From the IMG/VR virus record IMGVR_UViG_3300028025_000089: 64,000 bases of DNA; one strand, 5' to 3'. The translations under genes and the position numbers were made by a program. Shown here piece by piece: positions 50-15,801 of this stretch. The notes beneath the pieces were generated by a model. The model made no database searches. It saw only the letters and a list, made by a program, of their open reading frames with translations, and was not told the origin of the DNA. This DNA comes from a virus (lineage: Duplodnaviria > Caudoviricetes). Numbering within the stretch: the first letter of the stretch is position 1; each line of letters opens with the position of its first letter.

Positions 50-160
50 TTTAAGGTATTGTGATTGTAAGAAAAGGGAAACTCGTAAAGTGCATTAACC
101 TGTTGATATAAGATGGTGAAACGAGAGTGTGTATCAACTACTAATTACAAAAAAAAATAT

Positions 161-259
161 AGTCAGGTGGAATTTTGGTCCAGGTGTGGTTCGATCCCAC
201 ACTTTACTGAGAAGTAAGAGCAACTAAGGGCAACACAGGTTCGAATCCTGTCCTGACTA
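161..259 (+). ncRNA. tRNA-like RNA with two T-loop arms
   Basis: Acceptor AGTCAGG/CCTGACT (161-167/252-258); T arm ACAGG-TTCGAAT-CCTGT (235-251); D-like arm TGGA/TCCA (168-182); second arm GTGTGG-TTCGATC-CCACAC (184-202); GNRA hairpin TTACT-GAGA-AGTAA (204-217). Confidence 0.65.
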
Positions 260-263
260 CAAA

Positions 264-351
264 GTGTTGTTCCCTTGAGAAAGGAAAATAGAGTGGCTAC
301 AAGGTTGTTGCAACAACTAGTAAAGACTAACACAGAGGACTTCTCAACCTC
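264..351 (+). ncRNA. candidate kissing-loop structured RNA in the tRNA array
   Basis: P1 264-269/328-333; hairpin 270-273/283-286; hairpin 335-338/348-351; their loops are complementary over 7 nt (TTGAGAA 275-281 / TTCTCAA 341-347); perfect palindrome GTTGTTGCAACAAC at 304-317. Confidence 0.45.
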
Positions 352-6779: not shown

Positions 6780-7670
6780 ATAGATTATCCAATCAGGAAA
6801 AGTTTTGTCAGATTAATTGACGTGTAATTGAAACGAATGTTTCATCTTGGAATGATAAAGATATTGGGCAGTATATGGTCCATTAAAATAAACCATGAAA
6901 GTGGGATAAAGTGAATTATTTGTGTTAGATAGTTTGCGGCTTCTTCGGGAGCTCGAGTATACAAGCGGGATACCGTTTAACCTTTAGTATCGAGGGCAAC
7001 GCTGTAGAGAAAGTGGTTAGATGATTTGGCGATGTGGGTCGTCAAATTGAGGTGGGAACACCAATAGGAATAACTCGTAGGAATTTTGCAAAACAAAGTG
7101 TTCCAACACTTTCATTGCGAGTTCCAATATTAGAGGATACTTAAAACCGAAAGGTATGATAACAAACGGGTGGTGCCGACATTATCCTTGATGAACTCCT
7201 ACCAAGGGGTTAATCTCGAAGTAGTCTTAAAGTATGGAAATGGGGACATTTCAGAGAGTAGTTGAGTATTTCGTTGTTCAAAAGATAACGAAGCCCGTGA
7301 CGGACCACTACTTTCACAATCCACGACACAAAACTTATGGAAGTTGTTATTTTCCAAAAAATAATTATTACATTAAGGAAAAGTGTCCGTCAGGTTTGAA
7401 TGAAAGGTGACTACATAGTAATGAGCAGTTCATTGCACACAAAGATCCCAAGTCGATGTGTAATTTTTCGAAAAACCTTTAATCCCGCAAGGACGAACTG
7501 GGGAGGCATCCTCGGAAAGAGTTAAAGTAGAATGAGAGTAGTTCAGACCTCAAGGAGTGGTATACCTAAAAGACCGTCACTGAGAAATACTTCTCAAAAG
7601 GAAGTGGATAGGAGTAGAAACAATAATGACTCTAAAGGTTCTCACAAATAGGTGTAATCTCAACCTTTTA
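6780..7670 (+). ncRNA. giant structured ncRNA, probably GOLLD family (boundaries approximate)
   Basis: About 890 nt with no ORF in the track, GC-richer than the flanks. C(UUCG)G hairpin 6939-6952; GNRA hairpins 7147-7156 and 7237-7252; long-range helices 7219-7225/7307-7313 and TGACGGAC (~7298-7305)/GTCCGTCA (~7385-7392); terminal helix AAAGGTT (~7635)/AACCTTT (7662-7668); tandem promoters upstream and a terminator downstream. Confidence 0.7.
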
Positions 7671-8368: not shown

Positions 8369-8786
8369 TGGTGGACCTAGAGGGCTCCGACTCCCTCGTC
8401 CGGCTCGTCTTGTCTAAAAGACAACTACATGTTTAGATCAAGGTTTTTCATACCTTCCGAAATATTTGGTTCCTATTTTTACATTGTTACCAAAAACTGT
8501 GTCGAGTTCACTTTGTTACGGTAGCCCTCTGAACGAGACCGTTGTTTCCTTTTAGAGTGAAAACCAACTCATCTACGACTTCTGTTGCTAGGTTATCTGT
8601 CTGACCGACCCCCCGTTTCCGTATCTAATTAAGCTACAGTAACTTCAGAACCTCTTACTAATCCAAGAGTTTCCATTTTGTTTAGCACATTGCCAGTTGT
8701 GTTTTGAATCAGTTTTTAACGAGATTAATTCAGTCCCGACATGCTTCTTTTATTCAACCAACGCCCGTCAAATCCAATATAGGCCC
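8369..8786 (-). ncRNA. ssrA: tmRNA (SsrA)
   Basis: 5' GGGCCTA-TATTGGATTTGAC; 3' T arm GAGGG-AGTCGGAG-CCCTC, then TAGGTCC-A-CCA. Acceptor stem has the G3:U70 alanine determinant. Internal tag frame at 8694-8629. Confidence 0.93.
8629..8694 (-). other. tmRNA tag reading frame (A)GNVLNKMETLGLVRGSEVTVA*
   Basis: Resume codon inferred as GGC after AACT; open for 21 codons to TAA. Confidence 0.75.
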
Positions 8787-11094: not shown

Positions 11095-11622
11095 ATGAAT
11101 AGAAGTTATAGTAAAATTAGACACATCCAAGAAGCAAACTTGATGTTAGAAAGTAGAAGAATGGGAGAAAAATCAAAACATTTGTTGATGGAAGACTCTA
11201 TGAGAAACCTATTACCTTTAACAATTTATTTACCAACAAAAAAAGATCCGAAAACAGGTAAAGTTACGATGTTAAGTGTTGGAACGGCAAAATATCTTGT
11301 AACCGCCACTAAATCTCCTGACGACACCACAGGTAAAAGTTTTACAACTGATGATTATACAGGAATAAACAAAATTTTTATCAATAGTATTTCCGCAACT
11401 CAAGTTAGAAGTAAAAAAGACACATCAACAGGAAATATTTCAGGCACATTTACCGTGACCGAACCTATCTATACGTATTTAAAAGATTTTGTAGGAAAAG
11501 GAGTTCAAAATAGTCAAGACGTATATGGTAGTGTTACCTTAACTTCAGGAGGTAGTGAAGTTAAATACGCCACTTGGTCTGTTACCACATATGATGCAAC
11601 ACCAACTCAAAATCCAAAATAG
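11095..11622 (+). CDS. hypothetical virion/internal protein
   Basis: 175 aa; N-terminus MNRSYSKIRHIQEANLMLESR; TATTTATT at 11070-11077. Confidence 0.7.
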   Translation: MNRSYSKIRHIQEANLMLESRRMGEKSKHLLMEDSMRNLLPLTIYLPTKKDPKTGKVTMLSVGTAKYLVTATKSPDDTTGKSFTTDDYTGINKIFINSISATQVRSKKDTSTGNISGTFTVTEPIYTYLKDFVGKGVQNSQDVYGSVTLTSGGSEVKYATWSVTTYDATPTQNPK

Positions 11623-15036: not shown

Positions 15037-15801
15037 ATGGATACTTCAGATATTTTAAAAAGTTTCGAATCTCAAGATGAACTAAACCCAAAGATTTGGT
15101 ATCTACCAAATGAAAAATACATGGGTGATCCTGAAGGTCAAAAAATGAAAATGAGACCTGAAGTTAGAGAAAAACTTTTGGAAACAGCAAATATCTTCAT
15201 TGACTTTTTAGGTGTTGACGTAATAGTCACAGATATTATTATGATCGGTTCTTTAGTTAATTATAACTGGTCAAAATTTTCTGATATTGATTTACACATC
15301 GTGGTTAACTTTAATCAATTCCCTGAAAATAGTAGGGATTTATACCTTGAATTTTTTGATTTGAAAAAAGTAATCTTTAATCAAAGACACAATATTAAAA
15401 TGTTTGGGTATGATGTTGAATGTTTTGTCCAAAGAGAAGACGAGACAACTTTTAGTAGTGGTATTTATTCTATTCTTTATGATATGTGGATGAATGAACC
15501 TAAAAAAACAAGTAAAGAAACTCTTGATAAAGAACTAATAAAAGAAAGGGCTAAACAATGGATGAGAATTATTGATGGTGTTGTTGATAACATCGAAGAT
15601 GAGGATCCTGAAGAAATTAAAAGTATTGTAAAAAAATACAAAGAAAAATTAAAAAACTTCAGAAACTGTGGTTTAGAGAAAGGTGGTGAAATGTCGATAG
15701 AAAATTTGGTATTCAAATTACTAAGAAGAAACGGATATGTTGAAAAATTGTATGAATTACCGACCGAAATTATCGATAAAAAACTATCCATGAAACAATA
15801 A
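15037..15801 (+). CDS. Pol-beta-superfamily nucleotidyltransferase
   Basis: GSLVNYNWSKFSDIDLHI (GS...DxD) plus a downstream YDVE acidic residue. Confidence 0.75.
   Translation: MDTSDILKSFESQDELNPKIWYLPNEKYMGDPEGQKMKMRPEVREKLLETANIFIDFLGVDVIVTDIIMIGSLVNYNWSKFSDIDLHIVVNFNQFPENSRDLYLEFFDLKKVIFNQRHNIKMFGYDVECFVQREDETTFSSGIYSILYDMWMNEPKKTSKETLDKELIKERAKQWMRIIDGVVDNIEDEDPEEIKSIVKKYKEKLKNFRNCGLEKGGEMSIENLVFKLLRRNGYVEKLYELPTEIIDKKLSMKQ

Follow-up and report, generated by a model that had tools for sequence, protein, structure and literature searches.

A conserved tRNA-like RNA of uncultured freshwater phages with a putative second T-arm in the anticodon position

We analysed a stretch of 64,000 nucleotides from the Caudoviricetes record IMGVR_UViG_3300028025_000089 of IMG/VR (hereafter the window) and concentrated on the transfer RNA (tRNA)-like element at its positions 161-259, on the plus strand. 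This element is a conserved RNA. Its helices covary and stay paired in 34 distinct homologues, which excludes a decayed tRNA or pseudogene and a scar left by recombination. The element has the acceptor stem and the T arm of a tRNA and a D-like arm, and the comparison of homologues indicates that the arm in the anticodon position is a second T-arm (T'). Decoding thus appears very unlikely, on grounds given below. We favour, with a probability of roughly 60%, a reading in which the element is a processed, non-decoding small RNA that derives from a tRNA, uses it as a chassis, and acts through its fold, possibly as a decoy or a scaffold. Stable tRNA-like RNAs are known from the phages T4 and T5. 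The element shares its conserved design with two T-arms with T5 RNA2.

A tRNA-like element with a predicted second T-arm

The element is 99 bases long, with a variable region of 32 nt, and is organized as given in table 1. The coordinates of every arm were correct on re-reading the sequence and the minimum-free-energy fold has the same layout (-31.9 kcal/mol, z = -2.07). An initial annotation, made from the sequence alone, had described perfect acceptor and T arms, a D-like arm with GG, a 6-bp stem with a TTCGATC loop and a GAGA hairpin. We recovered all of these in the sequence and in the fold, except that the unpaired strand following the hairpin has 16 nt and not 17. Standard tools do not identify the element as a tRNA: ARAGORN, which finds six tRNAs in the window, makes no call at 161-259, and the Rfam tRNA model (RF00005) produces only a partial match of 16.7 bits over 181-255, for a gathering score of 29.

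Table 1. Arms of the tRNA-like element, in coordinates of the window.
Feature	Start	End	Strand	Sequence and pairing
Acceptor stem, 5' strand	161	167	+	AGUCAGG; perfect 7-bp pairing with 252-258 (sequence, fold)
D-like arm	169	181	+	3-bp stem GGA/UCC; loop AUUUUGG, including GG (sequence, fold)
Putative internal T-arm (T'), anticodon-arm position	184	202	+	6-bp stem GUGUGG/CCACAC; loop UUCGAUC at 190-196
Extra hairpin, variable-arm position	203	218	+	UUUACU-GAGA-AGUAAG
Unpaired strand	219	234	+	16 nt with conserved GG (AGCAACUAAGGGCAAC)
Canonical T arm	235	251	+	ACAGG-UUCGAAU-CCUGU
Acceptor stem, 3' strand, and discriminator	252	259	+	CCUGACU and A259; CCA not encoded

The internal T-arm is beyond chance occurrence. 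When T-arm-type hairpins are defined by a 4-bp stem, a closing G-C pair and a TTCRANN loop, the window has nine of them, on the plus strand throughout and confined to positions 186 to about 1706. Apart from the internal T' arm, these are the T arms of eight tRNA or tRNA-like genes. Markov-resampled sequence gives about 0.9 such hairpins per 64 kb, counting both strands. We also considered an antisense role for the 16-nt unpaired strand. Its reverse complement has no other site in the window with up to three mismatches, and this role was rejected for targets within the window.

Conservation and covariation in homologues

The central 21- and 26-mers of the element were found in only three other IMG/VR contigs. 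A 57-nt core is identical in these four sequences, even if the flanks are unrelated in two of the three other contigs. The four differ in their D loops, and one of them (L053) has a T stem with a compensatory change to GGGG/CCCC. The five closest copies have D-loop variants AATTTT, AACTTT and AGCTTT. A search with the D arm fixed and the loop left free returned one more close copy (L081), with the loop TTCGAAC, and a wider set of more distant members that have a 4-bp GUGU/ACAC D arm with GG in its loop. Further members came from a scan of metagenomes. A covariance model built on six copies then gathered 34 distinct sequences of a single architecture, which we call B type. They come from IMG/VR, from one metagenome-assembled genome (MAG) and from lake metagenomes, i.e. 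from uncultured freshwater phages, and the architecture recurs across many lakes and samples. The order of parts is acceptor, UG, D arm, a 4- or 6-bp stem with a 7-nt loop, zero or one spacer base, hairpin, GG strand, T arm and acceptor.

Over all helices of the B-type alignment, 97% of the cells are paired and 12 pairs show changes on both sides. None of 500 shuffles matched the observed covariation score or the percentage paired, and slid controls are 36-49% paired. The inner four pairs of the internal stem are paired in 100% of the 35 distinct aligned rows. Three of these four pairs covary, and the fourth, the closing G-C, is invariant (35/35). The T stem presents a similar pattern, with 100% pairing, four of five pairs covarying and an invariant closing G-C. 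In the hairpin at the position of the variable arm, five of six pairs covary and the loop sequence is variable (GAGA, UGCG, CAAA and 7-nt loops). The acceptor stem has no covarying pair: its sequence is the same in 33 of the 34 distinct homologues. The discriminator is A in 27 of these, G in five and U in two, and the next base is usually C. All members keep a GG located 4-7 nt before the T stem.

A T-arm rather than an anticodon arm

The initial annotation had recognized a T-loop consensus in the arm at the anticodon position. This observation holds across the 34 homologues, where the loop follows T-T-C-G-A-N-N: positions 1-3 and 5 are invariant, and position 4 is G in 33 sequences and T in one. 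The remaining positions are free. Position 6 (position 37 in an anticodon loop) is G in 20, T in 12, A in one and C in one, and position 7 is T in 28 and C in six. The same loop was retrieved in the metagenome scan, which left loop positions 3-7 free, and in the D-arm scans, which left the whole loop free. In anticodon loops, position 37 is a purine. The stem has either 4 or 6 bp, never 5 (6 bp in the window, 4 bp in most homologues), and always ends in a G-C closing pair. The T-loop consensus (G53-C61 closing pair, then U54, U55, C56, R57, A58 and two free bases) corresponds to GUGG-UUCGAUC-CCAC in the element.

Because of this signature of loop and closing pair, of the occurrence of any base at 'position 37' and of the 4- or 6-bp stem, we assign the arm to the T-arms, and not to the anticodon arms. 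Two further traits bear on decoding: nucleotide 26 is absent in most homologues, and the stack of D stem and T' stem between elbow and loop has about 8 to 10 layers, a number that varies among homologues. Given position 37, the stem length, the missing nucleotide 26, the variable stack length and a discriminator that can be A, G or U, decoding by the element is predicted to be very unlikely. The arm is not degenerate in the homologues, so that the outcome named as refuting in the initial annotation did not occur, and the proposal of a non-decoding tRNA mimic agrees with a loop and a stem that behave as those of a T-arm. The conserved unpaired GG, at 228-229 in the window, is a candidate partner of the T' loop.

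A large family of phage RNAs shares the frame of the element

The element fits the frame of a much larger family, in which an acceptor AGUCAGG/CCUGACU closes a T arm and CCA is not encoded. We found 410 occurrences of this frame in 165 of 201 loci. Once the last loci had been added, 1.8 Mb of loci gave 329 distinct elements in about 212 core clusters. The framed elements are 67-181 nt long, with hypervariable cores of 30 to 135 nt. About 45% of the core clusters have a D arm of the tRNA-Leu type (UGGCGGAAUGGUAGACGC), where the element at 161-259 has a reduced, 3-bp arm (GGA-AUUUUGG-UCC). ARAGORN misses the framed elements or gives them scattered, unrelated anticodons, and some reach the Rfam tRNA threshold. 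Among 225 distinct cloverleaf-like frames not called by ARAGORN, AGTCAGG is present in 109, and AGTCAGG or a one-letter variant of it in 127; the rest are mostly singletons. In the same phages, the acceptor stems of canonical tRNA-Leu genes are of many different sequences and do covary. The family frame evidently derives from tRNA-Leu. Near-complete relatives encode 0 to 5 framed elements and a single locus may have up to 12. This locus (L063, 7183-12207) has its 12 framed elements in tandem on the strand of the tRNAs, between small orphan open reading frames (ORFs) and repeated promoter-like motifs (TTTG-N19-TAtcTTTG), with the same core in two of the twelve.

Outside the D arm, the sole core word that is strongly enriched in the family is GGTTCGA, present in 18 of 212 clusters where about one is expected. 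About a tenth of the core clusters have an internal T-arm, and these arms occur in several unrelated architectures. For example, the abundant subfamily A (92-93 nt) has GTCGG-TTCGAGT-CCGAT, with a covarying variant GTTGG-TTCAAGT-CCAAT. There are also short forms, where the extra T-arm follows the acceptor almost directly, and long forms, where it occupies the position of the variable arm. The putative second T-arm is thus a recurring module of the family.

The double-T pattern with the AGUCAGG acceptor was found in 88 viral contigs, versus two MAG contigs among 185,579 prokaryote species. A T arm followed by CCTGACTA was absent from 300 sampled genomes of the phylum of a MAG that carries a copy. 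This led us to reject the mimicry of a host tRNA through the acceptor. The family seems to have escaped description: Rfam 15 has no family for the element, and a scan of 15 element-rich loci with it gave only tRNA, GOLLD and one freshwater-1 RNA; the literature that we searched in full text has no description of the AGUCAGG family or of a phage RNA with two T-arms; and no GenBank phage matches a Leu-type framed element, while BLAST against these phages matched the element at 161-259 only over the size of a T-arm.

Comparison with known tRNA-like RNAs

The closest known analogues of the element are T5 RNA2 and T4 rnaC, neither of which is a member of its group: the B-type model gives 17.1 bits on T5 RNA2 and 21.4 bits on T4 rnaC, no better than on ordinary tRNAs. 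RNA2 (AY543070, 32959-33083) is annotated as a 'tRNA-like stable RNA with unknown functions', as is T5 RNA1, which has a Leu-type D arm. Besides its T arm, RNA2 has an internal hairpin CTCG-TTCGATT-CGAG. In five diverged homologues, including one in the T4-like Acinetobacter phage Acj9, the stem of this hairpin covaries (TCG/CGA, TTG/CAA, ACGG/CCGT, TGG/CCA), with TTCRATT retained as the loop and an invariant AAUGG further downstream. RNA2 is conserved in 436 phage records and is mostly unannotated; most T5-like genomes carry no annotation for it. In two of its homologues the locus is labelled as the coding sequence of a 'hypothetical protein' (Acj9, L245, NC_014663 81349-81612; Yersinia phage phiR2-01, L243).

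Hence, the two-T-arm design is, as far as the sequences can tell, already present in a model phage. Like the element, RNA2 is encoded among the tRNAs of a virulent phage. Both RNAs are closed by an acceptor-like helix, include a canonical T arm as well as a D-like arm whose loop is G-rich, and lack an anticodon. In each, an internal hairpin of T-loop type (UUCRAUU in RNA2) has a stem that covaries and a closing G-C, and a conserved strand with GG comes after it. They differ in the acceptor sequence, in the hosts, which are enterobacterial for T5, and in the place of the hairpin: in RNA2 it caps a long interrupted arm, whereas in the element the T' arm abuts the D stem. T4 rnaC (species 1 RNA, NC_000866 70908-71046) resembles the element in its terminal part, made up of a canonical T arm and a partial acceptor; the large hairpins in between are not those of a tRNA. 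It has no second T-arm, and its acceptor is weak. It is, with rnaD, one of the stable small RNAs from the T4 tRNA cluster whose roles are not assigned (PMC3014915; PMC9697503). The initial annotation had suggested a possibly undescribed class. This stands as regards Rfam and the papers searched, but must be tempered by the annotated RNAs of T4 and T5 and, in particular, by the internal T-arm of RNA2.

The type II tRNAs (tRNA-Leu and tRNA-Ser) have in common with the element a 7-bp acceptor, a 5-bp T stem with a UUCGAAU loop, GG in the D loop and a hairpin as variable arm. The element differs from them by the lack of an anticodon arm, by an extra strand of 16 nt, by a score below the Rfam threshold and by an acceptor that does not covary. 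Relative to the rest of the AGUCAGG family, the element is alike in acceptor, T arm, lack of CCA, genomic setting and phage group; most members keep the Leu D arm and have other cores.

Two analogies drawn in the initial annotation fared less well. In the S-domain of ribonuclease (RNase) P, in stem I of T-box RNAs and in the L1 stalk, two T-loops interlock within one compact module that docks on tRNA elbows. The element also has two T-loop motifs in one RNA, but these cap two separate hairpins at a distance of 40 nt, each as an ordinary loop of 7 nt, and one of them is part of a tRNA-like T arm, for which contact with its own D loop is expected. The likeness to these interdigitated modules is weak. 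The second analogy was with bacterial Y RNAs. The YrlA model (RF02553) has no match at 161-259, and its only match in the window is a weak one at 570-629 (18.5 bits, compared with 69). Genes for Ro60/TROVE (PF05731) were not found in five relatives that are 93-100% complete, and two of 14 control genomes matched (Deinococcus radiodurans and Bacteroides thetaiotaomicron). A partnership of Y RNA and Ro60 type was rejected on both counts.

Function of the element and alternative explanations

We infer the following course of events. The element would be transcribed with the neighbouring tRNAs and excised by RNase P and RNase Z, since the chassis of acceptor, T arm and elbow is intact, as an RNA of about 99 nt before any addition of CCA. 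A U is common at position -1 of framed elements. In the B-type core, the second T-arm would stack in place of the anticodon arm and be followed by the variable-arm hairpin and the unpaired GG strand. The D loop and the unpaired strand offer one GG motif each, and each T-loop would pair with one of these, to form two elbow-like modules. The second contact is suggested by the presence of two T-loops and two conserved GG in the B type and by the same combination of internal T-loop and downstream GG in T5 RNA2. Such an RNA would read no codons but would work through its shape, and a factor that recognizes the upper half of tRNAs would encounter it as a mimic, a decoy or a scaffold.

Several observations weigh against this reading. 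Some loop letters were fixed in the patterns that first retrieved many of the B-type members, and the loop-unbiased sample is smaller. The T' loop and the GG are both invariant, so that covariation is silent on their contact. Metatranscriptome contigs from two studies cover the element, a weak hint of expression, but they run past both of its ends and are possibly derived from DNA; ends, strand and level are not readable from them. The element is dispensable, because the nearest relative of the window (G001) lacks the corresponding region and one relative that is 93% complete lacks any framed element. No protein partner was found: the five relatives searched have no TROVE gene, Pfam searches of 40 window ORFs gave nothing clearly related to tRNAs, and neither did PHROGs searches of nine small ORFs between framed elements, where no endonuclease or recombinase was recognized. 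The sole hint is a sub-threshold match to a nucleotidyltransferase at 15037-15798. Of the proteins that bind tRNAs, TruB and TrmA are known to accept T-arm hairpins in isolation. Finally, no known tRNA-binding protein explains seven invariant acceptor pairs next to a variable discriminator. Such a pattern argues against selection by a synthetase and leaves room for a dedicated binding factor, for the avoidance of host synthetases or for a process at the level of DNA.

Could the frame instead be simple punctuation? The chassis would then mark cutting sites for RNase P and RNase Z in a long transcript and the excised RNA would have no function, as in the tRNA punctuation of mitochondria, the t-elements of plants and mascRNA. 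On a single strand, framed elements alternate with small ORFs and tRNAs. An ORF starts within 60 nt downstream in about a third of them, and an ORF stops within 60 nt upstream in about 38%, values similar to those of the local ordinary tRNAs. Both enzymes would also tolerate the hypervariable cores seen across the family. But the B-type core is under purifying selection for a specific fold and for loop letters, neither of which a cutting mark needs, and punctuation leaves unexplained why an acceptor that does not covary stands beside a T stem that does. Moreover, ordinary tRNAs provide cutting marks at equal density. We regard this explanation as unlikely. We also rejected a special link to the starts of ORFs, as framed elements and ordinary tRNAs adjoin ORFs about equally often.

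Selection might also act on the DNA, if the constant halves were repeated sites of homology or recognition (for recombination, homing or the shuffling of cassettes) in a hyperplastic tRNA region, and the fold a mere legacy of tRNA-Leu. This would fit the invariant acceptor and its variable discriminator, the presence or absence of the element among close relatives, with mosaic flanks (window compared with G001, L054, L053 and L055), the range of 0 to 12 copies per genome and the repeated framed elements that flank small orphan ORFs. It does not fit the T, T' and variable-arm stems, which covary in a way that keeps the pairing of the RNA and hence points to selection at the RNA level. In addition, the 197-bp insertion or deletion (indel) that separates the window from G001 has no target-site duplication and includes a spacer module, paralogues within one genome have unrelated cores and are not recent copies of a transposition, and the nine neighbouring small ORFs mentioned above include no recognized endonuclease or recombinase. 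A purely DNA-level element is, in our view, quite improbable.

There is very little room left for a decaying tRNA pseudogene or a scar of recombination, e.g. a type II tRNA that received a foreign T arm by crossover. The array does have other odd tRNAs (358-433 and 440-517), T loops offer microhomology for illegitimate recombination and the nearest relative lacks the element. Nevertheless, four contigs whose flanks are different have exactly the same 57-nt core but not the same D loop and T stem, and the 34 homologues are distinct sequences, not assembly duplicates, in which four helices show compensatory changes. That the element is an unusual tRNA that does decode, with CGA as its anticodon (Ser, codon UCG) and CUA as that of one homologue, is scarcely credible: this idea would draw on the 7-nt loop with U at 32 and 33, on the long extra arm as in type II tRNAs, on the acceptor stem, T arm and GG D loop and on L081, which has A at position 37 and reaches 31.8 bits with the Rfam tRNA model, but it is contradicted by the U at position 37 of the element, free to be any base in homologues, by the stem of 6 or 4 bp, the varying length from elbow to loop, the 32-nt variable region and the lack of an ARAGORN call, and the discriminator (A, G or U) argues against a single synthetase identity, given that bacterial tRNA-Ser uses G73.

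The reading of the element as a non-decoding chassis RNA may be extended, in a form that we consider doubtful at present. T5-like phages, the T4-like Acj9 and freshwater T4-like jumbo phages might all encode 'two-elbow' tRNA mimics, with an acceptor that no host tRNA uses, that engage two elbow-reading sites at once by means of their second T-loop and GG. If so, these RNAs could jam or tether the tRNA-handling machinery of the host or defence systems that target tRNAs, or could bind to a different RNA of the phage, for instance the GOLLD cage encoded 7 kb away, and the AGUCAGG family would be a library of RNA effectors displayed on a common chassis.

To our knowledge, the tRNA-like stable RNAs of T4 and T5 have been known for about 50 years without an assigned function. 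The element suggests that such RNAs form a very large and actively evolving group in environmental phages. Its putative second T-arm and conserved GG strand are under selection and recur in T5 RNA2, which turns them into a concrete structural hypothesis in a tractable model, T5 on E. coli. The acceptor, which is invariant and was not found in the sampled genomes of the host phylum, may point to recognition by a dedicated system or to a tRNA chassis that is orthogonal by nature, and the latter may be of interest for RNA engineering. There is also a consequence for annotation: at present such genes are overlooked, called as tRNAs of arbitrary isotype or covered by spurious ORFs labelled 'hypothetical protein'.

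Genomic setting and neighbouring RNA genes

The window belongs to a T4-like jumbo myovirus, as indicated by Pfam matches to a gp20-type portal, a gp23-type capsid, a prohead protease and T4-type terminase genes. Freshwater metagenomes commonly contain DNA of this phage. The only non-viral matches are contigs binned with Bacteroidetes and Saprospirales MAGs, which makes a Bacteroidota host likely. The element heads a block of tRNAs on the same strand (358-1716, ARAGORN), and the arrays of relatives have promoters of the type TTTG...TAnnTTTG. In G001, the shared upstream leader runs straight into tRNA-Phe, and the counterpart of window positions 155-351, i.e. the element and a 92-nt spacer, is missing. 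Because of this absence, we consider the element to be accessory.

The spacer RNA module (260-357), which lies inside the same indel, has a closing helix similar to GTGTTG...CAACAC, a hairpin TTCCCTT-GAGA-AAGGAA and a 14-nt palindrome, and it ends in a hairpin GAGG-ACTTCTCAA-CCTC directly before the next tRNA. Both of its end motifs are found again before other tRNAs in L053, and a contig from an RNA library covers 264-352. The following gene (358-433) resembles tRNA-Phe but has an 8-nt anticodon loop (CCGGAAAA), to which ARAGORN assigns the anticodon 'ggaa'. L054 has the same form (11474-11549), and G001 has a normal tRNA-Phe(GAA) in the same place. In the next tRNA-like gene (440-517), the anticodon loop, with CAU, is almost the same as in the neighbouring tRNA-Met, the D arm is shrunken and the extra arm is long. 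It scores 25 bits with the Rfam tRNA model, below threshold, and is not called by ARAGORN.

Two other structured RNAs lie 7-8 kb from the tRNA block: GOLLD at 7254-7666 on the plus strand (313 bits), which L054 also encodes, and a phage transfer-messenger RNA at 8369-8786 on the minus strand (78.5 bits). The tRNA array of L053 includes a freshwater-1 RNA (Rfam RF02979, 86 bits) at 1382-1443 on the minus strand, about 1 kb upstream of its window-type copy (269-367). On the reverse complement of L053, at about 490-650, some 90 additional nt split a tRNA-like frame GGTTCTA...TAGAACC with a T arm, which is possibly a tRNA that took up an insertion or one more chassis RNA, closed by an acceptor of its own.

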